From positions 496,001 to 560,000 of the forward strand of contig OZ237738.1 of assembly GCA_965178125.1 (NCBI GenBank): a stretch of DNA of 64,000 nt, in the 5' to 3' direction. The position numbers and the translations under genes were made by a program. This DNA comes from Bilabrum cf. latius. Its lineage: Eukaryota. Positions 3-45,878 of the stretch are shown piece by piece; position 1 is the stretch's first letter; each line of letters starts with the position of its first letter. The notes beneath the pieces were generated by a model, which worked only from the letters and a program-made list of their open reading frames with translations, was not told the origin of the DNA and searched no databases.

Positions 3-3000
3 TCCAAGAGCATCTCAAACCGCGTGCTTCTCATGGCCGGCCTCGCGAGTGGGACGACGCGGATCACCGGTCTGCTGCAGTCGGACGACACGCAGGCTAT
101 GATGGGTGCCCTCACTGCCGTCGGGGCCAAGATGCGGTGGGAGCTAGGGGAGGGCGGAGGCCCCGTGCTAGTGGTGACCGGCACTGCGGGCGCGCTCTCG
201 GCTCCGTCGAAGCCCCTCCTATTCATCAAGAACGCGGGAACCGCTAGCCGTTTCCTCACCACCGCCTTGTGCCTGCTGCCGGCTCTTGAAGGTGACGGCG
301 TGGTGCTCGACGGCAACTCGAGGATGCGCAAGCGGCCGGCTGGACCACTGGTTGACGCGCTCCACAGGCAAGGATGCGAGCTGGCCTACGAGCCTATCGA
401 AGGAGAGAAGGGGCCTCCCAGCGAGCGGCGGGCGCTGCCGCTGCGCTTCCGAGGGGGTGGTCTGCCCGGCGGCAGGATCGAGCTGGCGGCCAAGGTGAGC
501 TCGCAGTACGTCTCATCCATCTTGCTCTCTGCGCCGTACGCCAAAGAACCCGTCGAGCTCGTGCTTGACGAGGAAAAACCCACTTCGCTGCCTTACATCG
601 AAATGACCACGGCGATGATGAAGCAGTTTGGCGTCGAGGTGGAGCAGCTGGCTCCAAACCACTACAGGATCCCGAGCGGCTGCTACTCGTTTGCCGGAGG
701 CGACGGATCCAAAGTGTTTGAGGTGGAGGCAGACGCATCGTCGGCGACCTACCCTGCAGCCTTCGCGGCGGTGACAGGGAGTGCCGTTCTTCTGCAGGGG
801 ATTGGCAGCCGCAGCGTGCAGGGAGACGCAGAGTTCTCCATGCTGCTCAAGCGCATGGGCTGCAAGGTGCACCGAACCCACTCCACGACCACCGTGATTG
901 GGCCCCCTCCGCGACCGCTAGTGCTGGACACTGCAGCCGGCGCATCTGCAGATGACGGCTTGATCGGACTGGGCAGCGTCGACATGAGCACCCAGACAGA
1001 CGCCTTCCTGACCATGGCGGCAGTCGCAGCGCACTCAGCTGGCGAGACGCACATCTTCAACATCGAGAACCAGCGAGTCAAGGAGTGCAACAGGATCCAG
1101 GCAATGCACGATGAGCTTGCCAAGTGCGGGGCTAGGACGGAGACTCGCCAGGACGGTATCCTCATCGCGGGAGCCGTCGCGGGCGAGGGGCTGCAAGGCG
1201 CCAGGATCCACTGCTATGACGATCACAGGGTTGCGATGGCCATGGCGGTATTCGGCGCTGGCCTCCTCGCCAGGCGCAGGGCCGCGAGCGGGCTGCTTAG
1301 TGCTGCACCCGTGTGCCCGATCGTGCTGGACGACCCTCTCTGCGTGGAAAAGACGTATCCCGAGTTCTGGGACCACCTGGAGACCATCCTCGGCGTGGAC
1401 GTCTCGGCAGCCGATGCAGGCGCGCTGTCCCCAGGTAGTGTCGCGGAGGTCCTGCACGCCAGGCTCGCGGGGACGCAGGGTTCTCGAACCGGCGGCTCCA
1501 CCCAGCCTGCTGCCCCGGGCCTGGCGGATCTTGCACCGAGGAATCTGCTGCAAGCGAAGCCGCGACAGCTGATCAACGCCTCCCTCGCACGACCCTTCAT
1601 GTCTGCGGTAGTCATTGGGATGCGGGGCGCGGGAAAATCGACACTCGCCCGAGCTGCAGCCGCTGGCCTGGGGCGCCCGTGGCGGCACATCGACCTGGAC
1701 GAGGTCCTCGTGAACGAGGAAGGCCGCACGGTCCAAGAAATCGTCGCGGAAGTAGGCTGGCCTGGGTTCAGGGCGAAGGAGGTCGACGTGCTTCTGGACT
1801 GCCTCTCCAGCGATGACCTATCCCAGCATTGCGTCATCTCGTGCGGCGGCGGAATCGTCGAGTCGCCCGTTGCGCGAGCTCTCCTCAGGGCGTACGCGCA
1901 GGGCGGTGCCGCGTCAGTGCGAAAGCTGGGGATCGAGTCGGGCTTGGTTCGGAAGAGTGCGGACGGCTCCGCGGCCTCGATCATCGCGAGCATGGATCCG
2001 AGGGACGTCCTGGCTCCGGAGCTCGAGCAGCTGGGGCCCCGTGCCGCTGGCAGCGGCCAGGCTCATGCTATCGTGTGCGTGACTCGCGCCATCGCCGACA
2101 TCGAAGCGGACTTGGGATTGGCCACAGACAGGCAGGCAGCGGTACGAGCGGCGCAGGCAGGAGGTTTGGTGCAGTCGGGGGGCAGCGGTGCTGCGGACGA
2201 GCAGCGCCCAGGCTACTCTGGAGGGGAGGGGTTGAGGGATGTGTACCGAAGGCGCCAGCCGCTCTTCTTCGAGACTTCGTCTCACTCTTTCGTGATCCGT
2301 GCCGGCGACAGCGACTGGGGTGCGATCTCTAGCGATTTCGTGGCGGCGGTGTCCGGGGCGCAGGGCCTCGATCTCGCCAGAGGGCAGCAGGGGAGCGGCC
2401 TCACGCTGGGTGCCGAGGTGCACGAAACCTTGCTGCTGGATTCTGCTGGCGCGGGAGGGCGCGATGCCGACGAGAATCTGCTCGCTATGCACGCGATTGA
2501 TCGCAGACACAGGTGCGTGTGGGACGCGCACTTTGCTGCCAAGCAGGCAGGCACGTTTTTCGTGTCTCTCACCCTGCCTGACGTGCACTATTGCGCGCCT
2601 CGATCGAGCGCTCATGGCGTGTCTCAGCAGCAACAAGACTAGCCCAAGCAAGTGGTGGTTGGGGTGCCCTCTGAGCTCGATGAGAGCGGGGCTGCAGTTG
2701 CCTCCGAGCCCGACGTTGCGCGGGGCCTGCGCGGCATTTCGGCAGGAGCAGACTCGATCGAGCTTCGGGTGGACCTGCTGGACGCGTGCGCCCGTGCCTG
2801 CGACATGGAGGCACATCTAAAGACGCAGCGATCAGCCCGGGACGCGGCGTATGGCGCTCTCGTCTCAGTCTCATACGCGCTCGGTTGCTAGGTAGCCGCG
2901 ATTCGTCGGCACGCAGGCCTTCCCATTGTATGGACGGTCCGCACAGCGGCCGAAGGCGGCAAGTTCACTGGTTCGCATGACCTGGCTGGCATGCTCATGC

Positions 3001-6000
3001 TGCTGGGTCTTCGTCTTGGGTGCGAGCTGGTGGACGTGGAGCACGGGCTGCCTGCCTTTGTGCGGCGGTGCGTCGGTCTCGCGGCTCGCTCGCGGGCGGT
3101 GCTGCTTCAGACACAATCGCTCTCGCGCGCCATTGGACCGACACCGGCCGCCAGCAACGTGCCGCCACCTCTGCCGAAATCGATTGCAGTTAGCGAGCTC
3201 CTGCCGTTGATGGCCTGGTCCTCGCCCACCATCATCTGGTCGAAACACTTTCCCGAGGCGCCCCAGCCCGCACAGTCGTACCTGCAGGAGTGCTTCGCTG
3301 CCATGCGCCAGGAGTCGATCGCTCTAGACCCGCTCGCCAAGGCAGGCCTGCGGGTCGGCTGCAAGGACGTCATCAAGATCGTGACGAGGGCCCAGGCACC
3401 TGCCGATGTGCATGCGGTGAGGAGTGCCAGCCTTGCTGATGCGCGAGCGGAGGCGCGGGACTGCCGCGACCAAGTTGCGAAGCTTGGTGCTGCTTCGCAA
3501 GGATCGACGGGACCAGCTGGTGCGAGCCATAGGGGTGCAGTAGACGTTGAGCGAGCCTTCCGGTTGCCCGGACTATGGGCCGTCCCTGTGTCTGCGTCCA
3601 CGAGGATCGTGCTGGCGATGGGCGACGAGGGCAAGCTCTCGAGGGTCTTGAACGAGTGCATGACGCCGTGCACTTCACCCCTCCTGCCGGGCGCAGCAGC
3701 TCCCGGCTAGCTGTCAGTTGCGCAGGTGCAGCGCCTGAGGGCCTCTCAGGGGCTTGTGAGGCCGCTGAAACTCGCTCTCTTCGGTCACCCCATCGGCAAG
3801 TCTCCGTCGCCGATCATGCACAACACGTCCTTCGCAGCGATGGCGCTGCCTCACGAGTACCTGCTGTCTAGCACGGAGGACCAGTCGATGGTGCGGGCCT
3901 CGCTGGAAGGAAGGATGAACGGCGGCGGGTCAGTCACTATGCCGCTCAAGATCACCACCATGCCGTGGATGGCTGGTCTGGCACCTGCTGCACGAGCCAT
4001 CGGAGCTCTGAACACCATTGTGAGGACGGACAGTGCCGACGCTGACCTGCGCCACTCCGGCATCGTGAATGTGCTGGAGCCCAAGAGGCAAGGCGAGGCA
4101 AGCGGCACAAGTGCGGTGCCGTTTTTCGGCTACAACACGGACTGGCTCGGCATTGCGATTCCCGTCTCGGCGGCGCTTCGTTGCCGGGACTAGGCCCTGG
4201 TCCAGTCTAGTGCGGCGGCTGGATCTGCTGCAGCGCCAATCGCCGGCGATTCGCGAGGATGCATTGTGCTAGGCGCTGGCGGCACCGCCAGGGCAGCTCT
4301 CTTTGCAGCCCGACAGCTTGGGCTCACGCTGTTCGTCTGGAACAGAACGGCGGCGAAGGCAGAGGCACTGGCTACCGAGGTGGGAGCCACCGCTGTGCCT
4401 ACTCTAGCCGAGTCCGCGACCCTGATGAAATCTGCTGGCTGTTCCCTGGACCTGATCCTGTGCACGGTCCCACCAGCTGCGTAGCTGACCGTGCCAGAGG
4501 CCCTGCTTCAGTCGAAGCCGGTCGTGCTAGATGCAGCCTACCTGCCAAGGACGACCGCACTGACTGCTCAGGCAGAAGCGGCGGGATGCCCGACCGTGCG
4601 AGGCATTCAGATGCTGATTGCGCAGGGCATCGCGCAGTCGGCGCTTTGGACTGGAAAGCAGCCGCCCTCTGGCAAGATCATGCAGTCGGTCCTTCGGTAC
4701 TACGATGCCGTGTCTCGCACTCTTCCGGGCGGTCAGGGGGCGATTGGCGCCGCAGCGGTTTCCAGTGCAGCTGCAGAGGTGCAACGAATCGATACCGAGA
4801 TCCAACGCATGGTGCAGGTGCGGACAGAGCTTCTGCAGCGGGCCGCCGAGGCGTCTGTGATCGACACTACGGGAGCAGCTGATGGTGGCCAGCAATCGGG
4901 AGGCACTCGCGCCGGGCAGCTGTTGGCCGCCCAACGGGATGCGCTTCCAGGACCCGTCCCGTCGTCTGCCATGCGAGTGGTCCTGGAGTCTGTTGACGCG
5001 GCGTGTGCCGTGGGCAGGCCGCACGCGAGCAGCCGAACCAAGAAGATTGCTTTCTGTGGCAGCGTTGGCTCCTTTGCTCACGCCGCCGCCATTCGCCTCA
5101 ACGCGTCGTCTGGGATGGGCGCTCGGCTGATCCCCTGCCTGACGGTACAGGATGTGTTCGCTCAGGTGCAGACCGGGAAGGTGGACGGCGGCGTCGCGCT
5201 GATCGAGTCCAGTCGGGAAGGCGTTGATCACCAGGCTCTGCGATGCCTCGTGTCAGCCAGCAATTCTGACGGCGTGGTTCAGGTGCTAGGCGCCAAGCAA
5301 GCGACAGCTGCTGCTGGTGAATCTGCCGCCGCCAAAGGTGAGTCCACCCTGTCTGCAACGGGTGCGGATTTCACCATTGACGTTGCAATCGTTCGAGAGA
5401 CGTTTGTGGCGCTCGACGAGGCACTGTGCAAGCCGAGAGGGATGGGTGGGTTGCGGTCTGCCACCAGAGTGATCGGCACGGGCCCCGCACTGCGTCGCTT
5501 CGTGCCCTACCTGCGGGTGGCCTGCTCCCGCGAGTGCAGCTTTCAGGTCGTGGAGAAGTCCGTGCAAGCAGCCGAGACGGCCAGCAGGCTTGCCCAGCAG
5601 GGCGAGCAGGCCTTGGCACTGGCACCACCGGCAGCAGCAGCCCAGTTCGGGCTGGAGATCGTGGCTCGCGGCGCGGAAATGGATAGGGAAGGACCCAGGG
5701 CCGAGCTGCTCACCGGCAGCGGGGGCGCCGGTGGGTCTGCGGGCTCTGGATCCTCTTCTATCCCAGCCATCGAGGACGTAGCGTCAGCCCTGCCAAGCAC
5801 CCACTTGTCGCCGCGGAGCTCGGTAGGACGGTACGTGCTGCTGACCAAGACTTCCATCGCCGAGCAGCTGCTGGTTTCCAGCACGGCCGGATCAGCGGGT
5901 GCCAGCAGCGGGAGCGCGCCTGCTGCCGACGGCATGCCGTCTGCTGCCGATGGCGTTGTAGTCCCGGCGCCTCGCCGAGCCAGCCTCGTGATCTCGCTTG

Positions 6001-6296
6001 CTGATCGCAAGGGCGCACTCGGCGATGTGCTCAGTACCATGGCCCAGCACGGCATCAACCTCACAAAGCTGGAGTCTTTCCCGGCTGGAGACGCGAGGGC
6101 GTACCTGTCTGCTGCATCGCCGGGGACTGGTGCGGAGTCTGCCGGTCTGCACAGGCCAGTGTTCCGTTTCTTCGTGGAGGCCCACGTGGATGAGAGCCCA
6201 GAGCCGCTGATGCGGGCTGCGCGGGAGCTGCGGAGCGGTGGGGCGCGTGTCAGGATCGTCGGGATCTACGACTGCGGTGCCCCTGCGACGACGTGA
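3..6296 (+). CDS. ARO1: AROM polyprotein (5'-partial): EPSP synthase, shikimate kinase, type I DHQase, shikimate dehydrogenase, plus C-terminal chorismate mutase-like/prephenate dehydratase-like/ACT extension
   Basis: One frame from SKSISNRVLL. Motifs: EPSPS (NAGTASRF, SSQYVSS, NQRVKECNRI, DDHRVAM, KTYPEFW); kinase P-loop GMRGAGKS; DHQase GADSIELRVDLL, LPIVWTVRT, AAPG*LS; SDH GHPIGKSPSP, SVTMPLK, GYNTDWLG, GAGGTARAA. Five in-frame TAGs (2640, 2889, 3708, 4191, 4482); ends TGA 6294-6296. Confidence 0.92.
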
Positions 6297-6465
6297 GATG
6301 GGATTGATCTTCGCTCGGTGCGTAGGTGGCACCTATTTTCTATTCAAACGAATACGCATGCTTCTGGCTTTCTTCAAACAAGCACAAGCTCAAAATCACC
6401 CTATCAGCCAACGTCGAGACGAACGGTGCCGCAGCAAGCCAACACGCCCAAGGCGAATTCAAGCA

Positions 6466-7645
6466 TTACGTTTGCTCATGGGCAGCAGCCGCTGCCGCTC
6501 CCCCCGTCGCTGGCCCGCTGGCTGCCCCTGCCCCGTCCCTGGACAGCGCGGCCACATCCTGAGGCCTCCCCACGAAATCGTCCATGGTGGAGTTCGTCCC
6601 GAACAGGTTGATGCAGAAATCGAAGGCGGCGGTTGGAATGATGCCACGGAGCATGGGCGAGAGGCCCACTGTCAGCGGCATGTAGACCACGGACTCCCGG
6701 CCGAGCACCGCCTTGACGATCCGGTCGGCGGCCCACTCCGCTTTCAAGATGGGCAGCAGGAGAGGGAAGCGCGTGGAAGCTCCCTCGAACATGCCGGTGT
6801 CGATGAAGAAAGGACAGATGCAGGACGTAGACACACCGGAGGCGCCCTTGCGCTGCAGCTCCATGCGGAGGCTCTCGTCGAAGCCAACCGCTGCCCACTT
6901 GGACGCGCTGTAGTCGCACTGCTTCGCGACTCCCGTGGTGCCCGCAGCCGAGGCGATCGTGATGACCTGACCGTGGTTTCTTTCCAGCATACCTGGCAAG
7001 AACGAGCGCACCGTCCAGAAATGAGAAATCACATTCACTTGGAACGTCCTAACGATCGCGCGAGGGTCCGCCTCCAGCAGCTCCTTGCCCTGCACAACTC
7101 CAGCGTTGTTGATCAAAATGTCAACGTCACCGGCTTCTTTTGCCTGCGAAGTAGGGTCAGGGCCAGATTAGAACGCCAATATAGACACGCGTCCACCAAA
7201 GTTGTACGGCAGATCGACCGCCGGCTATTTGTTTGGCCTACATTCGGCTGGGTCATATCATTTTGCTCACGGTTGCTTCCACCGTCTCCCTATTTGTTAC
7301 ATCTACTAGTGCAGTGCGGACTGTCTGCTTCGGTAGGTCGGGATCCTGCTCAGAGCTGGCAATATCAGCCTCAATTTCGGACTTGAGCTTGCCGAGAGCC
7401 TCTCCAGATCTCGGCAGGTCCCACAAGACCAGGGATGCCCCCAGCTTGGCAAACTTTCTTGCCATGAGTGCCCCGATTCCAGACGCTGCTCCGGTGATTA
7501 GGACGGTTTCTCCGTCCAATCTGGCACGCGTTGACAAGCTACTCAAAATGGATCGAGCTGCTGCCACCCCTCCAATGGCCAAAGCTACCTTTGCCCATCC
7601 AGGAAGCTTTGAAACACGCTTGATAGCTTCATTTACAACGTCCAT
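6466..7645 (-). CDS. Short-chain dehydrogenase/reductase (retinol dehydrogenase/17-beta-HSD11-like), 2 exons
   Basis: TGAASGIG, NNAG and YSASK motifs. Intron 7144-7270 (GTGAGC...CTGAC...CGCAG) joins VEAT|AKEAGDVDILINNAG. Ends TAA. Start ATG inferred. Confidence 0.85.
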
Positions 7646-7762
7646 GGCGTACTTGTGAGCCCCAGAACCAGAATTTGTGGCCGAGGGCGTCCACAGTTCA
7701 GTCGACGATCGCAATGGTTCCGCACTTGTGCGCGGCGCCACGACGATCCGTACGCACAGAAA

Positions 7763-9461: not shown

Positions 9462-12400
9462 TCAAGCGCTCCGCAGTCCGAACAGGTAGGACCCAGACTT
9501 CGTCTGGAACTCTACATACTCGGTCGATGCCACCGCGCCCACGATTCCATCCGTCGGGGTGAACTTCCCGTCCGACCACACCACGTTCCCGCTCTCCTCG
9601 ATCGTCGCGCTCCCCGCAGATTGCCCCAGCAGCGGCACCCAGATCGCACCCAGAGCGCTCACGGGAATCGTAGCATGCAGCGAGAGCGCCTTCCCACCCT
9701 GCCCCGAGGCGTCCCAAGAGGACACCGCGTTGCCGCGCGGTGTGGAGACCTTCGCCGTCACGTTGGTGGGCCCGGCCTTGGTGGACACGCGAGGCTGCAC
9801 GATCACCGTGCTGTACCCGTCGCCGCCGGGCAGGATGCCGCCGAGGGCCTTGTACAGCCACTCGCTCGCCGCACCGGCCAGGAAGATGTGGTTGTGCGTC
9901 GGTGCAGGCGGATGCGTAGCGTCAGCGTAACCGGACCAGTCTTCCCATGCCGTGGTGGCACCCAGCGAGATCCAGTGCCCGTACGACGGGAACGTCCGCT
10001 GCAGCATCATGCCCAGAGCCTGCTCGTGGTAACCGCGGGATGACAGCTGCCACATGGTGTGCTGCACGCCCACGGAGCCGTACGTCAAGTGGCCGTCTTG
10101 CGCCTGCACGTTGGCCACCAGCCCTTCCGCAAGAGCAGCCTGGTCCTTGGCCGACACAACCCCGGACACCGACAGCACGGCCGATGTGACCGACTGCACC
10201 TCCAGGTCGGTCTTGCCGAAGAGGTTGGTGGTCTTGTTGCGGTAGTTGGGGTCGAACTGAGGCAGCAGCTCATCGGCCAGCTGCTTGTATCTCTGCGCGT
10301 CTGCCTCCTCGCCGATCGCGCCGGCCATCTCGATCATGGCCTCGAGTCCTCCAAGGTAGTTCTGGGCGGCCAAAACTCCCCCCGTGTTGGGAGTGGCGAT
10401 AGCACGGGACTCCACGGCGCACCAGCTGCGATGGGACACAAAATTGCTTGGAAAACCACGGCAACGCATCTATGCAATGTTGTAGGCCTTGCAAGTAGGC
10501 CGCGTACTATCTGTATGACGGGCAAGGCATCGCTTTGCTGGCTGGTCTCACTCTCCCCACTGAAAGAAGTTCGGAATGTTGCCGGGTGCGCTTTGGTTCT
10601 TGGCCTCTTCATAGAGCCCATCCATGTATGCCTTGAGGCTGCTCCAGTGCTCGCGGGCCGGGGTGTCGTCCCCGTAGAACTTCAGCATGTGTCGCGTGAT
10701 GATCGGGTACGCAATCGTCCAGGAGATGTCGTTGCGGGGCGAACGACCAGACACGCTGCTCTGCATGGGACCTTGAGGGACCACTGCAGCAACGTCTCCG
10801 GTGGGGACCTGCGTGTCCTGGATGGTCTTGAGGAAGCGCCTGTACACTGGGATCATGTTGAAGTTGTAGAAGGCGCCCCTCGACGAAGTCACGGCATCAC
10901 CTGCGAGGAGAGTATTGAAATTCAAGGCACACATAACGCTGCGGCGAATCTGTGTGGCGGGGCTGTACGGCTTGCAGTAGGTGTCGCTTTGCAAGCTTCT
11001 GTCGTTGAATCTCACCCAACCTGCGAAAGAAGAGGAAAGCAAACAAGTACTCAATGAAGCACTAGCTCGACACTAAAATGCGGCACAGACATGAGCTGGG
11101 GTGTCACATCGTCTCAACCTGCTCACCATCCGTGCTTCTCCCTTGTGGGGCAGTCCGTTGGCATGTACCCGGCGTTGTTGCTGTTGTAGCCGCGCACCGT
11201 CAGGTCCTGGATCTTGCGGAGCAGCTCGTCGTCACCGTTGTTGCCCCCGCTGAACTCTACGTTTCCAGTCTTGTCCAGCGCGTTGTTCAGCGTCAGCCCG
11301 GTCACCTCGATCTCGTCAAAGTTCGTCATGCCATCGCTCGTGATCTCGCAGTACTGGAACCCGTGCCACGTAAAGCGTGGAGTCACCGTGGCGATCTTTC
11401 CGTCGAACGTGTGGCGATCCGTCTGCTTCGTCTCGTCCCAGGGGAAGGACACGCTCCCGTTGGGGAACAGCACCTCACCATGCTTCATGACGAGGGAGGA
11501 GCCAGCGGGAGGCGCGCTCTTGAAGTGGACCTCAACGATGCCCACGAAATTGACGGGGAAGTTGAAGCGCACGCGGTTGGTGCCCAGCTTGGTCACGTTC
11601 GTAGTAGGGATCCGGTCCGTCACTTTGGACAGGGGCATGGCCAGCGCACCCGATTTGCCCGACGGGATCTGCTTTCGCGTGGCCACCACCGGTGACCATG
11701 CGATGCCGCCGGACGGCTTGAAGCCCGCCTCCGACCAGCCCTCCTGTAGCCGGCGCCAGTCGGTGGTGGCACCATCGTACGGATCATCAGCCAGGATGTA
11801 TCCCTCTGTAGCCGACAGGGACAGCACCTCGGGCTGAGCAGACGTGGAGGGCCGGCAGGTCGAGTTGGCAGACACGTGCTTCTTGACCCCGTGGCACGGG
11901 TCAGGCACCGCCGCCGATCCGGGTACCACCACGCACTGGTCATCGTGACAGTGCGGCTACACCACGCACCTTTGCTGGCCCACGCATGCGCTCTCCACGA
12001 TCGACCGCACGCCTGGCGCGTCGCAGCTGGGGTTGGGCTTGAACGGACCGCTGGAGCATGACCCGGCGGGGGTGCCAAAGGACGCGAACGGCACCGATGC
12101 GATTTCCTGCCCTGCAGGGCACTGCAGCGCATCAATCTCGCCCTCTTCCAGACTCACGCACGTCTTGGGACCCTCTGACGGCACGCCAGACACGAAGATC
12201 GTGCGAGCGCCGGTCGAGTCCTCCGCCACGATCGTCACGCGCACCGTCTTGCTGCCCGCGAAGCGAGAGAGCCACCAGCCGGATCCTAGCAGCACGCCAA
12301 ACCCGTTCTGCCCATCCACCACCAGGGTCGTGATGTCGTGCGCCTGCCACAGGACTGTCCGATCGAACTACAGCCACGGCATCACGCCGTGCTGCTGCGA

Positions 12401-12979
12401 CGGGACGATCACATCGGCGTCCTCGCTCACCGATTGCACCTCCATACCATTCACAAACACGCTGAATCCACCAGGTCCAGACACGTACGCCATCACGCGC
12501 CGCTAGGATCCCTTTAGCGCGAAGTCGGCCCGTACCTGACTCTCGTTGCCAGACGGACCCTCCACCCACGTGGAGCCGAACCAGTCGGCCTCATCCATAA
12601 TCCCAACAGAAAAATTACCGCCAGATACGGCAGAAGCTTCCCCGCCGCCGGCCGTCCATTGCACGGTCCAGGAGTACTTGGTATGCGCAGCCAATTCCGA
12701 TCCATTGTAAACAGCCCACGTCTGATCGCTTTCAATGGCATGATTCCACACGGTCTTGCCTGAAAACGTTTCTTGTACTGTGATGGACATGCCAGACTAG
12801 CCCAGGCCGCGGGAGCACTCTTGGAAATAGTTGCCACAGTCGATCTTGTACGAGAATCTGGGGCTGCCATGGTCGATCACGGGCGAACCAGAGAGGCCAT
12901 CAACTTGAAGAGAGGTTGGCGGGGGCAAAGCAGCAAATGCAATGCCACAGCATAGACTAAGCGCTGAAAGGCAGCGCAT
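9462..12979 (-). CDS. Secreted GH78 alpha-L-rhamnosidase with inserted SUEL/rhamnose-binding lectin domain, 4 exons
   Basis: Signal peptide; PRFTWHGFQY, PTDCPTREKHGWLGDA (after splicing), WGDWC, GATTAWEDW, HNHIFL. Introns 11021-11126, 10901-11015, 10426-10551. TAGs at 12797, 12503, 12368, 11957; ends TGA. Confidence 0.88.
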
Positions 12980-13155
12980 GGCAGATCAAACGTGCTACGC
13001 GTCGATGTTCGTGCATATGCGCATATGCTCTGAAATGGCTCGCTACTGGCTGACTAAGTCGGATTTCTAACGGCATCGACATGGCGACGGTGAACTCTTT
13101 AAGGCTTGGCACTCAAGCCCACGACAATAAGCTGCTGCTCTTTGCGCTGCACAAG

Positions 13156-15898: not shown

Positions 15899-16109
15899 AG
15901 GTACCAGATTGTTGTCCCGCAAAATGCACGGCCATTCCGAAGTGGATCTGTCCGCGGGCGTGGGCCTCGAGACGAGGAATGTGGTGATCCAGGGGTCCGG
16001 CACCCAGGTGACGTACGCCAGACGGCTCTTCGGCGGCCACACCATGCCAGTGGCCATGAACGGGGGTATCTACCGCATTGAGAACGCAGAGGTGCGCAGG
16101 GCAGGTCAA
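15899..16109 (+). pseudogene. Inverted partial copy of the fibrocystin-L-like gene (segment ~28785-28985)
   Basis: Translates to GHSEVDLSAGVGLETRNVVIQGSGTQVTYARRLFGGHTM..MNGGIYRIENAEVRRAGQ, nearly identical to the minus-strand gene; no own start or context. Confidence 0.85.
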
Positions 16110-16158
16110 ATTAAAAAAGAATTCTCGCCGTAGTCTATCAATGTCTCAACGGATTTAC

Positions 16159-18097
16159 TCAGCCCGGCGCGTGCCCCACCGCCGCCAGCTGAGCCTCTAG
16201 CTCTTGCACTCGCGCCTCGGCCGCCTCCAGCCGCTCGGTCTGCGACTCCATCCAGGCCTGCTCCTCGTCCCCCAGCACAGCCCCATGCCCCTGCAGCACC
16301 TTCACGCACTCCCTGTGCCCGCCCACCATGGCTGCATGCAGTGGGGACACCAGCTGGCCACCAAGCACTCGCCCCTTCCTGTCCAGTCCCCCTGCCAGCT
16401 TGCCCAGCCTCAGCCGCTTGCCCAGCTCCAGCGGTCGCCCCGTGGCTGCCGCATTGAACACGAGAGCAGCGTCTCTCTGCGCGATCGCTGCGTGCCTCCA
16501 TGCGGCCAAGCAGTGCGCCCTGAAGCTGAAGCGCTCGATCAGACGGATCGTGGCTCTGTGTCGGTAGGCTTGAGTCTCAGAGCCTGCTGGGAGCTCCGCA
16601 GGTGCCTCGCCTGCGTTGTTCTTGATGTCCTTCTTTGCGCCTGCATGAAGCAGCAAGCGAGCGCATTCAACCCGCCCGTACTCCACGGCAGCATGTAGCG
16701 GGGTGCTACCGTCGTGGCTTTGAGCGTTCACATCTGCACCTGCACGGACCAGCACTCGCGCACAATCCACATGACCAGTCTCACAGGCCATGTACAGAGG
16801 CGATTCTCCTTGCGCAGCCCGAGTGACTACAGTCGCCCCGGCCTCCACAAGCAGACGCACACAGTCCACATGGCCGTCCTGGCTTGCAATGTGCAGCGGT
16901 ACAAAGCCACCATCCTTTGCTGCGTTCACATTGGCGCCAGCCCCCATCAACACACGCGCGCAATCCACGTCACCAGTCGCACAAGCCACGAACAGAGGCG
17001 ATTCTCCCGTCGCAGTCCGCGTATCCACAGTCGCCCCGGCCTCCACAAGCAGACGCACACAGTCCACATGGCCGTCCTCGCTTGCAGTGTGCAGCGGTAC
17101 AAAGCCACCATCCATTCCAGCGTTCACATTGGCGCCAGCCCCCATCAACACACGCGCGCAATCCACATGACCAGTCTCACAGGCCACGTACAGAGGCGAT
17201 GCCCCTTGCGCAGTCCGCGTGTCCACAGTCGCCCCGGCCTCCACAAGCAGACGCACACAGTCCACATGGCCTTCCTCGCTTGCAATGTGTAGCGGCACAA
17301 AGCCACCATCCATTACAGCATTCACATTGGCGCCAGCCCCCATCAACACACGCGCGCAATCCACATGACCAGTCGCACAGGCCATGTGCAGAGGCGATTC
17401 TCCTCTCGCAGTCCGCGTATCCACAGTGGCCCCGGCCTCCACAAGCAGACGCACACAGTCCACGTGGCCATACTCGCTTGCAATATGCAGCGGCAAAAAG
17501 CCACCATCATTTGCTGCGTTCACATTGGCGCCAGCCCCCATCAACACACGCGCGCAATCCACATGACCAGTCTCACAGGCCACGTACAGAGGCGATGCCC
17601 CTTGCGCAGTCCGCGTGTCCACAGTCGCCCCGGCCTCCACAAGCAGACGCACACAGTCCACTGTCCCATGCTCGCTTGCGGCGTGAAGAGCCGTAACATG
17701 TCCATCACCAACTGCATTCACATCAGCACCAGCATCAGTCAGATACTTCAAGCAGTCGACATGACCATTCCTTACACAGCAGAAAATAGGAGTCTATTGC
17801 TCCCTATTTCTGCTGCTGGCATCGACGCCAGCCTTCAACAGTCTCTACACTACCGAAGCGCTCCCAGTATCAGCTGCGAAAGATGATGGACAGTGTAACC
17901 AACTCGATATGATGTATTGCATCCATGGTTCCAACCGAATGATAACTAGGCGTTTGAATGCGCTTACCCGCAACATGGAGCAATGTGTTGCCCTAAAGCG
18001 AGCAAAACGCAAGGCTCGGCTCCTTCTAGAGAAGTTCCGATACTTTGCGGGAATCACCGCATTTCGCTGCATCAATGATGCGAGTCGTATTGTCCAT
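16159..18097 (-). CDS. Ankyrin-repeat protein, copy 1 (~614 aa, 2 exons)
   Basis: MDNTTRIIDAAKCG start; 94-nt intron 17874-17967; four in-frame TAGs (18026, 17993, 17845, 17794); five 198-nt two-ankyrin units; short C-terminal coiled coil; ends TGA. Confidence 0.85.
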
Positions 18098-18282: not shown

Positions 18283-19122
18283 GGAGGCATCCCCACATGG
18301 CCGGCGCCCAGGCCAGGTACCACTACGTCAAGTCGCTGGCCGTGCACGACTCCAACCAGAGGTGCGCCACCATCCACGGCAGCAAATACTACACCGTCTT
18401 CTCCATCGCATGCACCAGGGTAAGAGGACACAGCGTCTTCGTGGAGGACGGCGCCGAGGAGTGGAACGTGATCGAGGACAACCTCGTGGCCGGGACCATC
18501 CGCCTCTTCAACGCCCTCAAGGGCGACATGAAGCCGGCGTCCTTCTGGGCAGCCAGCCCCAAGCAGCTATGGACCGGCAACTATGCCGCTGGTGGGTAGA
18601 ACGACGGATATTGCGCGAGCTGCCTGGCGCTCTCCATGGACCGTCCTTCACCACCTCCATCTGCCCCGTGCACGACCACCTGGGGCACTTCCACAACAAC
18701 ACGGCGCAGGCCAACGGCGTGCAGGGGCTGCGCATCTACCCCGCGTACCTGCCGTACAAGCACCCATGCAATGAAGCAGAAGGACCTCCGGACATGTGCA
18801 GCAGACCTTCGCCAACCTCACGTCCTTCCGCAACGGCGCTCACGGCATCTTCAACAAGCAGGCCCGGCGCCATCCGGCTCAAGCACTTCAACCTCATGGG
18901 CAACGGCGGCGACGACGAGAGGCGCGTGAAAGCTCAAGAAGGTGTACGGACCTCCCGCGCACCAGCCCAACTCGGAAGGCAACCTGTACGTGCGCGACCC
19001 TGACCACCCCACGACCCCCGGCCACTGGCGGCAAGCTGGGCCTGTTCGCCCCCCAGGACGAGTACTACTACGGCAAGGACCTGACCTTCGTGGGGTACGG
19101 CAGCGGAGGGGCCGTCACCGGT
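18283..19122 (+). pseudogene. Inverted, frameshifted partial copy of the fibrocystin-L-like gene (segment ~27925-28780)
   Basis: HMAGAQARYHYVKSLAVHDSNQRCATIHG...GKDLTFVGYGSGGA; the homologous peptide jumps between frames. Confidence 0.85.
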
Positions 19123-19204
19123 GGCAGGGATTCTGACTGATGCTTGCGTGTACTGTTGCGACCCAGGAGTACGACGACCACTTGACTCTATCTCGATCCC
19201 TTAC

Positions 19205-21413
19205 TCAGCCAGGCGCTTGACCCTATGCTGCAAGCCGAGCCTCTAGCTCTTTCACTCGATCCTCGAATGCCTCCAGCTCCCTCACTTGATCCTCGAATGC
19301 CCGCGCTCGACCCTCAAGCGCTTCTGCTCGCGCCTCGGCCGCCTCCAGCCGCTTGGTCTGCGACTCTATCCAGGCCTGCTCCTCGTCCCCCAGCACAGCT
19401 CCATGCCCCTGCAGCACCTTCACGCACTCCCTGTGCCCGCCCACCATGGCTGCATGCAGTGGGGACACCAGCTGACCACCAAGGACTCGCCCCTTCCTGT
19501 CCAGTCCCCCCGCCAGCTTGCCCAGCCTCAGCCGCTTGCCCAGCTCCAGCGGTCGCCCCGTGGCTGCCGCATTGAACACGAGAGCAGCGTCTCTCTGCGC
19601 GATCGCTGCTTGCCTCCATGCGGCCAAGCAGTGCGCCCTGAAGCTGAAGCGCTCGATCAGGCGGACCGTGGCTCTGTGTCGGTAGACTGGAGTCTCAGAG
19701 CCTGGTGGGAGCTCCGCAGGTGCCTTGCCTGCGTTGTTCTTGATGTCTTTCTTAGCGCCTGCATGAAGTAGCAAGCGAGCGCATTCAACCTGCCCGTACT
19801 CCACGGCAGCGTGAAGCGGGGTGCTGCCGTTGCGGCTTTGAGCGTCCACATCTGCACCTGCACGGACCAGCACTCGCACGCAATCCACATGACCATTTTG
19901 ACAGGCCCAATACACAGGCACTGCTACATGCCTGTGCCTGGTATTCACAGTCACCCCGGCCTCCACAAGCAGACGCACACAGTCCATATGGCCTTCCTCG
20001 CTTGCAATGTGCAGCGGCACAAAGCCACCATCATTTGCTGCGTTCACATTGGCGCCAGCCCCCATCAACACACGCGCGCAATCCACATGACCAGTCCAGC
20101 AGGCCAAGTACAGAGGCGATGCCCCTGTGGCAGTCAGCGTGTCCACAGTCGCCCCGGCCTCCACAAGCAGATGCACACAGTCCACATGGCCGTCCTGGCT
20201 TGCAGCATGCAGCGGCGCATAGCCACCATCCATTGCAGCATTCACATTGGCGCCAGCCCCCATCAACACAAGCGCGCAATCCACATGACCAGTCCCACAG
20301 GCCATATACAGAGGCGATGCTCCTGTCGCAGTCCGCGTGTCCACAGTGGCCCCGGCCTCCACAAGCAGACGCACACAGTCCACATGGCCGTCCTGGCTTG
20401 CAGCATACAGCGGCGCAAAGCCACCATCCTTTGCTGCATTCACATCGGCGCCAGCCCCCATCAACACACGCGCGCAATCCACATGACCAGTCGTACAGGC
20501 CAAGTACAGAGGCGATACCCCTTTCACACTCCGCGTGTCCACAGTGGCCCCGGCCTCCACAAGCAGACGCACACAGCCCACATGGCCATGCTCGCTTGCA
20601 GCATGCAGCGGCACATAGCCGCCATCACTTGCAGCATTCACATTGGCGCCAGCCCCCATCAACACACGCGCGCAATCCACATGACCAGTCGTACAGGCCA
20701 CGTACAGAGGCGATGCCCCTGTCGCAGTCAGCGTGTCCACAGTCGCCCCGGCCTCCACAAGCAGACGCACACAGTCCACATGGCCGTCCTGGCTTGCAGC
20801 ATACAGCGGCGCAAAGCCACCATCCATTGCTGCATTCACATCGGCGCCAGCACCCATCAACACACGCGCGCAATCCACATGACCAGTCTCACAGGCCACG
20901 TACAGAGGCGATGCCCCTCTCGCAGTCCGCGTGTCCACAGTCGCCCCGGCCTCCACAAGCAGACGCACACAGTCCACTGTCCCATGCTCGCTTGCGGCGT
21001 GAAGAGCCGTAACATGTCCAACACCAACTGCATTCACATCAGCACCAGCATCAGTCAGATGCTTCAAGCAGTCCACATGACCATTCCTCACACAGCAGAA
21101 AATAGGAGTCTCTTGCCCCCTATTTCTGCTGTTGGCATCGACGCCAGCCTTCAACAATCTCTGGACTACCGAAGCGCTCCCAGTATCAGCTGCGAAAGAT
21201 GATGGACAGTGCAACCGACTCGATATGGTGTTTTGCATCCATGGTTCCAACCGAACGATTACTAGGCGTTTGAATGCGCTCACCCGCAACATGGAGCAAT
21301 GTGTTGCCCTAAAGCGAGCAAAACGCAAGGCTCGGCTCCTTCTCGAGAAGTTCCGATACTTTGCGGGAATCACCGCATTTCGCTGCATCAATGATGCGAG
21401 TCGTATTGTCCAT
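19205..21413 (-). CDS. Ankyrin-repeat protein, copy 2 (~704 aa, 2 exons)
   Basis: Paralogue of copy 1 with the same 130-nt first exon and 94-nt intron (21190-21283); six 198-nt units. Reading through TAG 19223 gives LAA*GQAPG-TGA, matching copy 1's LAAVGHAPG-TGA. Confidence 0.85.
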
Positions 21414-23270: not shown

Positions 23271-26200
23271 TCACACGATGGACCCGCCAGCCCCGCGCAC
23301 CCTGGTGGGCTTGGGTGCCACCCGAACGGTGGGCTTGTGCGCGTGGTGAGACTCACCACCGAACCCGGGCCCGGCCTCGGCGCCCCCCGCGTGGGAGCCC
23401 GCGATGACCCTCGCCCTCTCCTGCCACGTGGGGTTGGCCCCATGCCACTCCACACCGTTCTTGCGAGAACCGGGCTGCAAGGGCGAGCTCTGGATCTTGT
23501 TGGCACCGCTGGAGCCCTGCAGCTTGACCTGGTCGGCACCGGCACCGGCGCTGCCCTGCCTGCCGTACACGAAGAACAGGCCCACGAGCACGAGACCCAC
23601 CACCACGAGGCCGCCGACCACGGCGCCCGCGATCAAACCGGCGCCGATGCCGCCGTCGTCGTCCCCACCGGGCTGGGTGGGGGGGCGGATCACGCTGTCG
23701 GTGTCGGTGTTGTTGGCACCCGGGGACCGGGGCACTGCGAGGCCGACCAGCCCCGACACGTCGTCCACGTTGGTGTCCACGTATCCCTGGATCGTCACGT
23801 TGTTGTACGTGATGTTCTCGCCAGCGAACAGTGGCACGCCGGGTGAGGCCAGGTCCACGAAGTTGGCCTCCATCATGGCCTGCAGCAGGTCGTCCACCTC
23901 GGGGTCCGAGGGCGGCAGCACGGTGCCCCTCTCGCTCGTCATGGACTCGTCCGAGGGCGGGTCCTCCAGCGCCGGCCTCGAGATGCCGATCTCGGCGTCC
24001 TCCAAGGGGTAGCCCACGTCCAGCTCGCCGCCAGCGATGGCGTTCTGGATGGTCTTGCCCACCGCCACGAGGCGCTCCACCTGCCTGACCGTGTCCTGCT
24101 TCTCGAGGGAAGGCTCGGCCTCGTCCTGGATCTCCACCCCCACGTGGGCAGATCCCGCGGCCACCTCCACGATCTTGATCCGGTCGGCAGGGATGGACAG
24201 CAGGGTGGCCAGGTTCTGCACCACGTTCTCGCCGGCGAACTCGTCCACGGACACGGCCAGGGTCATGTTCAGCTGGATGCTGGACCTGCGCCGGATCAGG
24301 TAGTCGGCGCCGGGGTTCCCACCGCGCATGGTGAAGTACAGATGCCTGGCCTGCGGGTCGAACTTGTTGGCTCCGGCGGGGGAGTTGAGCGTGGGCAGGT
24401 CCGTGCCGGGCAGCGGCTGCACGAGCTGGCCGTTGTAGAACACGTCGATCGAGTTGGGCCGCTGCACGAACAGCTTGATCACCACGGCCTCGTTGGCGTC
24501 ATCCGAGTGGAACCGTCCGCGGAGCGTACCGGGCAGCGTGCCGCCGAACCGGAGGTGGTTCTCCACGCCAGACTCGAGCAGCATCGGGTGGTGCTGGAAG
24601 GGGAACCGCTTGGCGCAGCCGTCCGCGATCGGGTTCACCGAGGACGAGTTGCGCAGGCCGCCCGAGGGAGTCTCCCTCTGGATGCGCACGGGTCCGATGA
24701 GACGGAAGCCGCGGTCGCGATCCAGGCCGTCAAACACGGCGTGTACCATGTTGAGGGCGCCGCCGCGGATGCCGTCGGCGGGCGGCTGCTCCCCGGCGCA
24801 CTCCACGCCGGACCACGCGGCCACGCCCTCGCACACGGGAGAGTTGTCCGCGTTGCCGATGTCCCACTGCGACATGATGACCGAGTTGGCCTTGCCCGTG
24901 GACACGGTGGTGCCGTCCAGGTCCTCCACCTTGACCACGCTGAAGCCGTCGCATCCCTGGCGCGTGCACTTGGAGTTCGTCTTGTCGTTCTTGTCGAAGC
25001 TGAACTTGTTGTCGTGGCCGGTGTTGAACCAGTTGATGCCCCTGAAGAACATGGGCGGGAAGAAGTCCACCTGGGTCGGGTTGGTCACCACGGCCTTGCT
25101 GGCGTAGCTCTGACCGCCGCACGTCTCGCTCTCGTTGCCAAAGTGGGCAAAGTGCGTGTCGATCACGTGGTACTCGGCGTGCCTGGTCCCCGGCAGGCCG
25201 TACCGCTTCTCCCACGGCATCGAGCACATGCGGGTGGGCGTGTTGACCGGCCTGCACACCGGCATCTCGCTGTCGTGGGTGCACGTCTTGCCCCTGTTGG
25301 TGTACTGCGCAGACATGATGCCGGCGCGGCGGTACTCGCTGCCCAGCACGCTCTGGCACGACACGCCCCAGCCGTCGTTCTGGCTTACCGCAAGGCAGCC
25401 CACGCTGCCTCCGCAGGTCGACGCGCCTGTGGACCCGGCAAAGTTCGAGTTCTGCACCACCGTGTACGACAGGCGGGCGCGGCGGAAGTAGTTGGGCGAG
25501 AAGCCGATGTGGCTGTCCGTCACCGTCACGTGGTCCAGGCGGAAGTGGGCCAGCTGGTCCACGGTCACCACGCCCAGGTGGGCGGCCTTCCACACCGTGG
25601 CTCGCTGCAGCTGCACGCACTTGCTCTCGCCGCCGCCCGCGGTAGACAGCACGAAGAAGCCGATCTTGCTGCCGTACGCCTCGTTGTTCTGGATGGGGTC
25701 GTTCTCGGCCGTCTCCCACGGGGACGAGCACAGCGTCGGCCGGATGGTGAAGCCGCCGTCGTACGAGCCGCCCACCACGTTGCCGCGGAGGCTGCGGGGC
25801 TCCACGTCCAAGAAGAAGCCCGCGCGGTTCCGCGCCCACCGGTTGGTCTCGTCCGTGGCGCGGAAGACGCCGGCGACCAGGTTGTTCTCGATCGTCGCGT
25901 TCGTGGCGCGGCTGTCCAGCTCAAAGGCGGTGCGCACGGCGTGGTGGAACACGTTGTCCTTGGCCTCGACGTTCTTGGACCCAAAGCCCACCACGCCGTA
26001 GTTGTACAGGTCCGAGAAGGCGCAGCCGATGATCCTCTGCACGGGGTTGTTGGGGCTGTCGGTCCTCCAGGGGGAGAACTGCATGAACAGAGCAGAGTGC
26101 TCCATCTCGCCCTGGCCCTGCTGCTGCAGCTCCACGTAGCTGAGGTGGATGCGGCCCTGGAACTTGGCCCGGAGGCCCGACACGGCGTCGGCGGCGCCGT

Positions 26201-29200
26201 ACATCTCTCCGACCACCATGTGCCCGCCGAACGTGTCCTCCTCCTCGCCGTCCGCGACGGCCTCCATGTTGGACGTGATCCGCACGTTGCGGTTCAGCAC
26301 GCCCACGGCCGCGGCCAGCGTCACCGAGCGGCCCCCACCGAGGTCCACGGTGCCGGCAAAGTGGCGGTGCTCCAGCGCGGGCGAGAACCCGACCGTGCGG
26401 CCGTTGCTGCTCACGGAGCTCACGGTCACCGTCTCCAGCTCGTTGGGGTTGGAGCCGGAGCCGGGGTACTCGGTCGGCGCGATGGTGATGCGGTCCCCTA
26501 CCTTGATGTCGGTGTCGCGGTCCAGGGTGATGGACGTGTCGTCGTCGTCGGCGGTGGACGCCAGCTTGGCCCAGGTCACGTCCCGCTTGGCGCCGTACAT
26601 GAGCAGCTCGCCGCCCACGAAGATCACCTTGTCGTCGAGGTAGATGTCGTTGTCCACCACGGCCCCGTCGTCGATCTCGCCGCGCTTGGAGAACAGCTTG
26701 ATCTCGGCGTTGGCGCCGCGCCACGGCACGGCCTCGGTGCCGATGGTCACCCGGCCAAAGATGAGCAGGTGCTCGCAGTTGAGCTTCCTCGAGGTCCCGT
26801 CGTTCCGGAATTCCACGATGCCCTCCACCCGCACGGTGCGGTAGGCCGGGCTGTCGGTCAGGTCGTACACCAGCTTGACGGTGTTGGGCACCAGCAGGTC
26901 GTCGCGCGTGCCGTGCTGGTCGGCGGGGAAGTACTCGCTCCACAGCAGCTCCTCCTGAATGTCAATCACGCCCGGCGCGCGGCAGCCCTCGGGCGGGCAC
27001 TGCATCACCTTGGAATCGAAGCGGTGCTTGGTGTACCGGTGGGGGTTCCAGGGCCCGCGGGTGTCGTTGTGCGTGGCGGTCGACGGAGTCACGTTGCGGT
27101 TGTTCATCACCACGTACCAGCGGTTGGAGGTCTGGTTGTACCACCCGGTGCCCATGTCGTCCGTGGGCGTCGGCCTGCGCTCCACCCCGAACGGGTTGCC
27201 GGTCCAGTTGCCGATGGGCGGGCGCTCCCAGTACAGGCTGCGATGCGACTGGTAGTTGGACTTGGTGCGGTCCTGCTGCAGGTAGCCCGACGAGTCGGGG
27301 TCCACGGTCTGGTGGCTGGGGTTGAAGGGCATGCGCACCTCGTATCTGTGAGCGTAGTACGTCCTGTTCACAGACCACATCACCCACTCGTTGTCGTCGG
27401 ACGTCACGTAGGCGGGGTCCGAGTACCTCAGGCGCAGCCAGTTGAAGTCCACGCCGTACACCCGGTCGTTGTCGTACCGGCGCATCGAGGCGTCGTACAG
27501 CTTGCCGGTCACGATCGGGCTCACCCAGCCGTAGATCTCCTTGGGAAGGAACTGCTGAATGTCCCAGGCCTCGTCGGCTGTGTCCCTCCGCACGGTCATG
27601 GCCAGGTTCTGGTCGTCCAGCTCGCGCGGCGTGTACTGGTCCAGCTACAGCCGGCGCACCTTGACCGAGTCGTCGCACACGATGCCGTTGTCGTACTCCA
27701 CACCCTGCCTCTCGCACTGCCCGGGCCACACGTTGAACGCGCGGTAGGCTGTGGCCCACCCGCCGGCGGTGCCAGTCAGGCTGCCATCGTCATCCTAAAA
27801 GATCTGCTTGTAGGGCGCCGTGAAGCGCACGCGCTTCGTGGAGTTGAAGAATCGAAGCCCAGAGAAACGGAAAGTGTACCCGCCCTGCTTCATATCGGTC
27901 TGGCTAGCGCACTTGGCGCATCCGGCGATGGCGCCTCCGCTGCCGTACCCCACGAAGGTCAGGTCCTTGCCGTAGTAGTACTCGTCCTGGGGGGCGAACA
28001 GGCCCAGCTTGCCGCCAGTGCCGGGGGTCGTGGGGTGGTCAGGGTCGCGCACGTACAGGTTGCCTTCCGAGTTGGGCTGGTGCGCGGGAGGTCCGTACAC
28101 CTTCTTGAGCTTCACGCGCCTCTCGTCGTCGCCGCCGTTGCCCATGAGCTTGAAGTGCTTGAGCCGGATGGCGCCGCCCTGCTTGTTGAAGATGCCGTGA
28201 GCGCCGTTGCGGTAGGACGTGAGGTTGGTGTACGTCTAATACATGTCCGGAGGTCCTTCTGCTTCATTGCATGGGTTCTTGTACGGCAGGTACACGGGGT
28301 AGATGCGCAGCCCCTGCACGCCGTTGGCCTGCGCCGTGTTGTTGTGGAACTGCCCCAGGTGGTCGTGCACGGGGCAGATGGAGGTGGTGAAGGACGGTCC
28401 ATGGGGAGCGCCAGGGAGTTCATGCCAATATCCGTCGTTCTACCCACCAGCGGCATAGTTGCCAGTCCATATTTGCTTGGGGCTGGCTGCCCAGAAGGAC
28501 GCCGGCTTCATGTCGCCCTTGAGGGCGTTGAAGAGGCGGATGGTCCCGGCCACGAGGTTCTCATCGATCACGTTCCACTCCTCGGCGCCGTCCTCCACGA
28601 AGACGCTGTGTCCTCTTACCCTGGTGCATGCGATGGAGAAGACGGTGTAGTACTTGCTGCCGTGGATGGTGGCGCACCTCTGGTTGGAGTCGTGCACGGC
28701 CAGCGACTTGACGTAGTGGTACCTGGCCTGGGCGCCGGCCATGTGGGTGTGCGTGGGATACCGGCCAAGGATACCTCCCTGGCCCGCCCTGCGCACCTCT
28801 GCGTTCTCAATGCGGTAGATGCCCCCGTTCATGGCCATGGTGTGGCCGCCGAAGAGCTGCCTGGCGTACGTCACCTGGGTGCCGGACCCCTGGATCACCA
28901 CGTTCCTCGTCTCGAGGCCCACGCCCGCGGACAGATCCGCGTCGGAATGGCCGTACGGCTCGCCGTCAAAGATCTGGTACCTGTGCGTGTACCTCAGGGC
29001 CCGGGTCAGCCTCAGCCGGGTGGGCGACAGCACCTCGGCGACCTCGACGTCCTCCTGCTGGCGGTACGACCTCGTGGACGAGGTCACGAAGAGCCTGTCG
29101 CCCACGCGCCAGTCCACGGGCTCCTGCATCTCGATCACGTCCGATCCGGCCTCGCTCGTGGCCCCCAGCCTGGTCCAGGACCTCTTGCGCGGCTCGCCGT

Positions 29201-40844: not shown

Positions 40845-41000
40845 GGGGTAATAGAATTCAAATAAAAGGTGTTCTCGCCTAGCTCCAAATTAAGGAACCT
40901 TCGCTTCTGACAACGTGCAGGTTCGTTGACGGATTCCCTTTCATATTGCCACAGCTCGCACTTTCGGGGCCATTGAGCTTATGTGGCCGTTGTGGAAGTG

Positions 41001-45749: not shown

Positions 45750-45878
45750 GTGCCGCCTCGCGCGCGTGGACGGACGTGCAGGATTGCGGACGTGTCGGCT
45801 CGCGCGATAACGTGCCATTTACCTTTAGGCCGTGATATACTGTGTTCGTTTTGGCCACTTGGATCCACCTTCTGCAGA

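Follow-up and report, generated by a model that had tools for sequence, protein, structure and literature searches.

An AROM protein of Bilabrum cf. latius extended by a P-protein-like tail with replaced catalytic motifs

Results

Gene layout and reading frame

We analysed a stretch of 64,000 nucleotides from Bilabrum cf. latius (assembly GCA_965178125.1, contig OZ237738.1, positions 496,001 to 560,000 of the forward strand; G+C content ~64%), hereafter the window, whose left end carries a gene for the multidomain shikimate-pathway protein AROM, continued in the same frame by a tail that resembles the P-protein (PheA), i.e., chorismate mutase (CM), prephenate dehydratase (PDT) and an ACT domain. 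Frame 3 of the plus strand is open from the start of the window to a TGA at 6294..6296, which ends the whole open reading frame (ORF), except for five in-frame stops, all of them TAG (2640-2642, 2889-2891, 3708-3710, 4191-4193 and 4482-4484; span 2640..4484). When TAG is read as glutamine, the translation (P0001) is 2097 residues long, and Pfam families follow one another in it in the order EPSP synthase, shikimate kinase, type I dehydroquinase, shikimate dehydrogenase (SDH; N domain and SDH_C), PDT and ACT. The AROM core occupies 3..4694, with EPSP synthase at 3-1379, shikimate kinase at about 1617-1889, type I dehydroquinase at about 2550-3722 and SDH at 3777-4694, within which SDH_C covers 4602-4694 (residues 1534-1564). 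Thus, four of the five AROM domains are present in order and in one frame; the fifth, dehydroquinate synthase, would fall to the left of the window, at whose edge the frame is still open. An RNA-like contig (record 6 of the sequencing run X6, see below) extends 1541 nt beyond that edge.

Upstream of position 4485 the AROM core is continuous only when the five in-frame TAG codons are taken as sense, while the interval 4485..6296 contains no stop of any kind. Since the last TAG (4482) lies upstream of SDH_C, and 4485..6296 is stop-free under any code, the fusion of SDH to the tail is independent of how TAG is read. An earlier reading of this DNA, made from the letters and their ORFs without database searches (the sequence-only reading), had stated that the SDH frame runs on into the tail without a stop, and this is borne out. 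The four peptide strings that it picked out of the tail are all found in frame 3 where it had placed them: EVQRIDTEIQ... at 4776-4832, IAFCGSVGSFAHAAA at 5046-5090, VFAQVQ...ESSREGV at 5154-5225 and SLVISLADRKGALG...LESFP at 5982-6083.

The strings GMRGAGKST, SKHF, VIKIVTRA, AAPGQLS, SVTMPLK and YNTDW, which we take to be motifs with catalytic roles, were located in the AROM core. The core retains the shikimate kinase P-loop, the contexts of the dehydroquinase lysine and histidine, and those of the SDH lysine and aspartate.

The tail is homologous to the P-protein

Behind SDH_C a short linker (4695..4736, plus strand; tail residues 1-14, with low pLDDT) leads into the tail, which consists of a CM-like three-helix domain of the AroQ type (4737..5012), a PDT-like domain with the periplasmic-binding-protein fold (5046..5849) and an ACT domain (5973..6272), all on the plus strand. 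Pfam PDT (PF00800; cut-off 25.2) scores 46.5 bits on the whole protein (residues 1682-1891) and 50.2 bits on a 603-amino-acid piece, and the match spans positions 1-163 of the 181 in the profile. Pfam ACT (PF01842; cut-off 27) scores 32.7 bits on the whole protein (residues 1994-2033) and 34.9 bits on the piece. Both matches, which the sequence-only reading had proposed looking for, therefore exceed the Pfam gathering cut-offs.

An AlphaFold model of the tail, built on an alignment of 106 rows, has a mean pLDDT of 76.4 and values above 90 in the domain cores. Among solved structures, Foldseek matched it, with its two PDT lobes and the ACT domain behind them, to the PDTs 6vh5, 2qmx, 3mwb and 2qmw, with E values from 3e-19 to 4.5e-13 and TMt from 0.68 to 0.81. 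The ACT domain was modelled as beta-alpha-beta-beta-alpha-beta at tail residues 427-526 with a pLDDT of about 90; an insert of ~20 residues is located between its strands 2 and 3. Two further inserts, modelled with low confidence, interrupt the PDT-like domain at about 5256-5381 and 5685-5819. We regard the identification of the PDT and ACT parts as secure.

A phmmer search with the tail against 1.84 billion representative sequences gave 406 matches at E<=1e-3. The first three are fragments from close relatives, and those that follow are mostly CM-PDT-ACT proteins of about 350-430 amino acids. The nearest relatives that carry a name are bacterial (Kofleriaceae, Opitutales, Kytococcus). In a language-model look-up the closest clusters were bacterial bifunctional CM/PDT proteins (score 0.92). 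The homology of the tail to the CM-PDT-ACT P-protein is thus supported, and the PheA-like identity that had been read from the letters alone agrees with the Pfam, phmmer, language-model and Foldseek results and with a custom CM profile described next.

Pfam CM_2 (PF01817) gave no match at E<=1 in the tail region. A hidden Markov model (HMM) made from 76 CM segments of canonical P-proteins scored 23.7 bits in the window, over model positions 3-74 of 79; scores in the related proteins described below were 18.7 (L001), 13.1 (P0011) and 10.9 bits (Cafeteria P0156). For the window and for each relative, none of 500 shuffled sequences reached the observed score. In the tail model the region forms helices at 15-59, 72-83 and 90-106, i.e., in AroQ proportions, and when folded alone, as a model of 100 residues, it gave helices at 2-44, 58-69 and 76-92. 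Foldseek returned 14 matches for it, of which 13 were CMs or CM-like domains, the best with a weak E value of 0.038 and TMt of 0.77. The CM part is, judging from profile and model, probably a weaker but real component of the tail: the CM_2 search that had been suggested for it stayed silent, and the custom HMM and three-helix model may point to it.

Residues lost and kept in the tail

The motifs of the tail were compared with the 100 canonical rows of alignment A1, which comprises 104 of 150 listed homologues, the protein P0002 and the window; five further rows are members of the window's own family. Counts below are rows with the residue over rows filled. In the PDT-like domain the motifs lie, on the plus strand, at 5058-5078 (GSVGSFA), 5202-5222 (IESSREG), 5469-5501 (VIGTGPALRRF) and 5823-5843 (VGRYVLL). 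The threonine of the TRF motif, found in 93/99 canonical rows, is a glycine in the window, and the asparagine two residues ahead of it (87/97) is a serine. Likewise, the asparagine of ENS (92/100) is replaced by serine, and the serine or threonine that follows the loop G-x-G-[ST]-[FY] (91/100) by alanine. In the SHPQ motif glycine stands for the serine (69/94) and threonine for the histidine (80/94), and the glutamine before a cysteine (86/94) is an arginine. Thus, these conserved cleft residues of a PDT (the TRF threonine, the N of ENS, the loop serine or threonine, and the SH of SHPQ) are replaced. What is retained in this domain is the glycine loop, the glutamate of ENS (99/100) and the arginine of TRF (92/100). 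According to PMC13217925, the TRF triad is crucial for catalysis in PDTs; PMC8192741 places the loop serine and the TRF threonine on the floor of the cleft in GqqA, a protein of the PDT fold.

The CM-like domain has undergone similar replacements. With active-site residues numbered as in E. coli, the equivalents of R11 (74/80), K39 (75/83), E52 (70/76) and S84 (57/77) are alanine, serine, alanine and alanine, respectively, so that of the AroQ set R11, R28, K39, R51, E52 and S84 only R28 and R51 remain. In the ACT domain G440 (98/98), L442, S461 and P463 are kept. Its regulatory motifs, given for PDTs as GALV and ESRP in PMC13217925, read GALG and ESFP in the window (GAL at 6012-6020, ES-P at 6072-6083); the change of R to F is also seen in 4/98 canonical rows. 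The motif states ESS, GTGP, GRY and ESFP are exactly those that had been read by eye. Since the AROM core of the same protein retains its motif contexts, the losses are specific to the tail. Loss of the catalytic motifs, predicted from these alignments and common to four relatives, is supported.

Constraint on the tail

Between the window and its relative L001, the rate of nonsynonymous change (dN) is 0.285 in the tail (453 codons) and 0.342 in the AROM core (1000 codons). The ACT domain is the most conserved part, with 93% identity over 67 codons and a dN of 0.042; the inserts and the linker ahead of ACT change fast. As judged from these comparisons, the tail module appears to be maintained and not decaying.

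Relatives share the architecture

L001 is a metagenome contig of 4502 nt with a single ORF that contains seven TAGs and runs from shikimate kinase through SDH into a CM-like/PDT-like/ACT tail; it is 63% identical to the window in the best tblastn segment and 69% across the aligned tail. P0011 (1602 amino acids) comprises shikimate kinase, dehydroquinase, SDH, PDT (48.3 bits) and ACT (49 bits). P0156 is FNF31_06850 of Cafeteria roenbergensis, a "hypothetical protein" of 2473 amino acids in which PDT (25.3 bits) and ACT (24.7 bits, below the cut-off of 27) come after a complete AROM. A further relative is represented by P0005, a C-terminal fragment with 57% identity. At the TRF site, P0011, L001/P0003 and Cafeteria P0156 have GRF and P0005 has ARY. 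The derived states GR[FY] (ARY in P0005), E[ST]SR-G, ESF[PI] and FRFF are common to the relatives.

In a FastTree phylogeny of 104 rows a branch with an SH-like support of 99 separates the five tails from the other rows. The tree contained 99 canonical rows out of P0006-P0112, with P0011 represented by its tail, and rows shorter than 260 amino acids, P0046, P0082, P0094, P0097, P0100, P0103 and full-length P0011 were left out. The CM region of P0011 is misaligned in A1, and other alignments and the custom HMM were used for that region.

A search with the SDH region listed 38 proteins of AROM length, which are 30-46% identical to the window in that region. One of them (P0156) has an ACT family and 37 have none, including the oomycete, fungal, ichthyosporean and choanoflagellate AROMs among those listed; a Pfam domain scan of five of the 38 found one with such a tail. 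A word-index search for long tail-bearing proteins returned none, by a method that misses distant relatives (P0011 and P0156 surfaced by other routes). Since the same architecture recurs in Cafeteria FNF31_06850 and in two further records (L001 and P0011), it is a feature of a lineage and not a one-off. As far as these records indicate, the architecture is rare and is conserved in one lineage. The sequence-only reading had proposed an architecture search across protist proteomes; among the AROMs listed here the arrangement was uncommon, at 1/38. It had also known of no described example. A literature search that covered papers turned up no account of an AROM carrying a PDT/ACT tail, which agrees with that statement; the architecture itself is already present in public data, namely in Cafeteria FNF31_06850, L001 and P0011.

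Transcript-like contigs across the junction

A 21.6-kb contig of the DNA run X1 is identical to the window; it may be the source of the window and is hence not independent. The runs X6, X7 and X8 are not recorded as RNA (X6 is classed as "probably DNA"), and we infer their RNA nature from splicing, contig ends and depths. Contigs of all three lack 7143-7269 (127 nt, GT..AG on the minus strand), which X1 keeps; they stop at gene borders; and the depth of X6 varies gene by gene (14.8, 82 and 156). Record 8 of X6 is a single piece that matches 923..6368 and shows neither a difference nor a gap nor a joint. All five TAGs and the SDH-tail junction lie within it, and its end is 72 nt past the TGA. 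Record 16 of X7 covers 4625-4982 and also bridges the junction. The possibility, raised beforehand, that transcripts might part SDH from the tail is not reflected in these data: none that do so were seen among them, and the RNA-like contig is unbroken across the junction.

The intron at 7143-7269 belongs to a convergent gene on the minus strand, 6356..7668, that encodes a short-chain dehydrogenase (Pfam adh_short; ORF pieces 6466..7167 and upstream). Transcript-like contigs from this gene and from AROM share ~12 nt at 6356-6368.

Genetic code and other genes in the window

Several observations bear on the reading of TAG. At the TAG sites of P0001 residues 963 and 1236, homologues have glutamine in 36/38 and 37/38 cases. 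The alignment of the window with L001 includes 11 TAG sites, and four of these pair with CAG. Ten long ORFs of the window, six with Pfam support, carry 85 in-frame TAGs, and they end seven times with TGA and three times with TAA. A code with TAG as glutamine and TGA as stop is, from these comparisons, well supported. TAA appears to remain a stop: the TAA at 45747-45749 is followed by a separate gene, the start of which resembles a signal peptide by eye. No tRNA genes were found in the window. Codes in which only UAG is reassigned to glutamine are reported for Iotanema, Protocruzia and phyllopharyngean ciliates in PMC11687900; our literature search for a stramenopile case of UAG as glutamine found none. 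The closest named AROM, tail included, is that of the stramenopile Cafeteria.

Other long ORFs lie further to the right. The ORF at 56806..61455 (plus strand) has 25 TAGs. At 49261..56058 (minus strand) a 2265-amino-acid ORF with 17 TAGs has ion-transport and C2 domains between long low-complexity flanks. An ORF of 3997 amino acids at 23271..35264 (minus strand) combines nine stretches of IPT/TIG with two G8 domains, a CEMIP beta-helix and PA14/GLEYA, and is presumably fibrocystin-like; on the strand opposite to it 23847..35117 is open for 3756 codons with no Pfam match and is probably a G+C-rich shadow frame. The 1590-amino-acid, coiled-coil-like ORF at 40977..45749 (plus strand) has 18 TAGs and no Pfam family, ends with TAA and includes more than 12 exact tandem copies of the 15-residue unit RVDALQSEHEAELKQ. 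Similar repeat-rich ORFs with no Pfam match (units such as HKQTHTVHMAVLAC...) occur at 16060..17886 and 19085..21202 (plus strand) and may be repeated DNA, not genes. Genes resembling alpha-L-rhamnosidases, with bacterial GH78-type domains, lie at 45750..49145 (plus strand) and 11123..12985 (minus strand), one of them with a SUEL lectin domain.

Discussion

What the tail may do

We propose that the tail is a catalytically dead, effector-binding regulatory module attached to AROM, and we put the probability of this reading at roughly 0.55. According to this proposal, one polypeptide would carry AROM, i.e., steps 2-6 of the shikimate pathway, and then a module descended from a bacterial-type P-protein. 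Residues retained by canonical enzymes are gone from both of the formerly catalytic domains, and for this reason the module has most likely ceased to make prephenate or phenylpyruvate. An aromatic end product, with phenylalanine as the default guess, would bind to the ACT domain, and a pathway intermediate may also bind, either in the cleft of the PDT-like domain or in the bundle of the CM-like one. The bound module would then take on another conformation or oligomeric state, in the manner of PDTs, and thereby adjust the activities of the AROM to which it is attached. We infer the loss of catalysis, the binding of a ligand and any effect on AROM from sequence comparison. The sequence-only reading had offered two alternatives, an extended shikimate-to-phenylalanine polyprotein and a dead, phenylalanine-sensing feedback module, and between them the residues present in the tail would favour the latter.

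Several points weigh against this proposal. The glutamate of ENS, the arginine of TRF and the G-x-G-S-F loop are kept, which also fits an active site that is altered and still live. The alignment behind the CM model consists mostly of true CMs and so biases the fold, and the Foldseek matches of this region have E values of 0.038 or worse. Synonymous change (dS) between the window and L001 is saturated; dN/dS is therefore unreliable, and constraint on the tail is read from dN and identity only. The committed step of the shikimate pathway does not lie in AROM and, to our knowledge, no search having been aimed at this point, no AROM is known to be allosterically controlled; feedback would therefore act here at an unusual point. 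Finally, our analysis covers a window of 64 kb, and separate CM and PDT genes elsewhere in the genome would bear strongly on whether the tail is an active enzyme.

It is indeed conceivable that the tail is still an active CM and/or a prephenate (or arogenate) dehydratase working with non-canonical residues, which would make the protein a longer shikimate-to-phenylalanine polyprotein. Its domain order and fold match the P-protein, it is under constraint, it retains the E of ENS, the R of TRF, the N-terminal glycine loop and the CM residues R28 and R51, and 6/99 canonical rows are also without a threonine at the TRF site. However, the threonine replaced in the window belongs to the triad that PMC13217925 describes as crucial for catalysis, the equivalents of CM R11, K39 and E52 are replaced too, and these replacements are family-wide. 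The chain of reactions would not be contiguous either, since the protein lacks chorismate synthase, which acts after AROM and before CM, and the CM part reaches only 13.1 bits in P0011 and 10.9 bits in Cafeteria. We consider an active tail of this kind unlikely. Within the family the replacement residues are conserved in their turn, which is what a new function, rather than decay, predicts, and the PDT-like cleft might have gained a different catalytic activity on another substrate with ACT still as its regulator. There is a precedent in the PDT fold, the acyl-homoserine-lactone acylase GqqA (7am0, among our fold matches; PMC8192741). GqqA, however, keeps the cleft serine and threonine that are lost here (Y16, S17 and T174 in the same source), nothing points to any substrate, and the fusion to AROM argues for a role inside aromatic metabolism; a new activity in the cleft therefore seems improbable to us.

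We give equally little credit to a tail that is mainly structural, i.e., a platform for dimerisation or assembly that keeps the AROM dimer stable and has no role that depends on a ligand. AROM is a dimer, and AroQ CMs are intertwined dimers, which would suit such a platform. So would the ACT-ACT contacts through which proteins of the PDT fold act as dimers (PMC8192741). A scaffold, however, would not need a ligand-binding domain as its most conserved part, with 93% identity, a glycine loop and ES-P; and 37/38 AROMs listed do without an ACT family, only one of the five scanned with Pfam having such a tail. Lastly, the fusion could be an artefact of assembly or annotation, or a chance read-through of two genes. 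Four independent records (the window, L001, P0011 and P0156) share the architecture, record 8 of X6 and record 16 of X7 bridge the junction, and the junction itself shows neither a stop nor a start context nor a joint, which makes such an origin very hard to credit.

Comparison with known systems

The tail aligns with the bacterial P-protein (PheA: AroQ CM-PDT-ACT) from end to end and shares with it the three domains and their order, the PDT/ACT fold and, in ACT, the GAL and ES-P motifs. It differs from it in being fused behind a eukaryotic AROM, in its identity of 23-31% to canonical homologues (alignment A1), in the replaced CM and PDT residues, and in the two long PDT inserts and one ACT insert. 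With the canonical AROM/Aro1 of fungi, oomycetes and other protists the window protein shares the order EPSP synthase, shikimate kinase, dehydroquinase and SDH in one ORF; those proteins end with SDH, whereas that of the window runs on for ~530 residues. A dead domain within AROM has a precedent in Aro1 of Candida albicans, four of whose five domains are active (PMC9074039). Cafeteria P0156, in which AROM is also followed by PDT-like and ACT parts, has ESSR-G, GRF, ESFPA and FRFF[IV]E in common with the window and falls into the same clade; it is, however, more eroded (PDT 25.3, ACT 24.7 and CM-like 10.9 bits) and is called as one protein without TAG breaks.

A further parallel is provided by DAHP synthases with CM or CM-like domains (Geobacillus 5j6f, Listeria 3tfc/3nvt, Bacillus subtilis 5gmu/5go2 and the Prevotella DAH7PS-CM). 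There, too, a shikimate-pathway enzyme bears the domain of a downstream enzyme, which serves allostery, and the allosteric assembly of DAH7PS-CM has been described (PMC8408635). The CM-like regulatory domains of 5j6f, 5gmu and 5go2 belong to the best structural matches that the CM-like region of the window gave. In these fusions the host is the first, committed step and carries a single CM domain, whereas in the window the host is AROM, the attached module is a whole P-protein, and regulation would be the role that we propose.

Implications for the lineage

A broader scenario, which we offer tentatively and hold to be somewhat less probable than the regulatory reading of the tail itself, is that a clade of heterotrophic stramenopile-like protists (the window organism, L001, P0005, P0011 and Cafeteria) acquired a pheA gene of bacterial type, fused it to AROM and made of it a pseudoenzyme sensor. 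These would be the first AROMs with built-in allosteric control by an end product, exerted through an entire dead P-protein. It has long been asked why AROM unites five shikimate enzymes, be it for channelling, co-ordinate expression or regulation. If the scenario is true, a long-kept effector-binding module without catalytic residues would amount to a natural experiment on the regulation answer, and it would clearly exemplify the reuse of a two-domain enzyme as a sensor. The tail is, furthermore, a shared derived character that links the window organism with Cafeteria.

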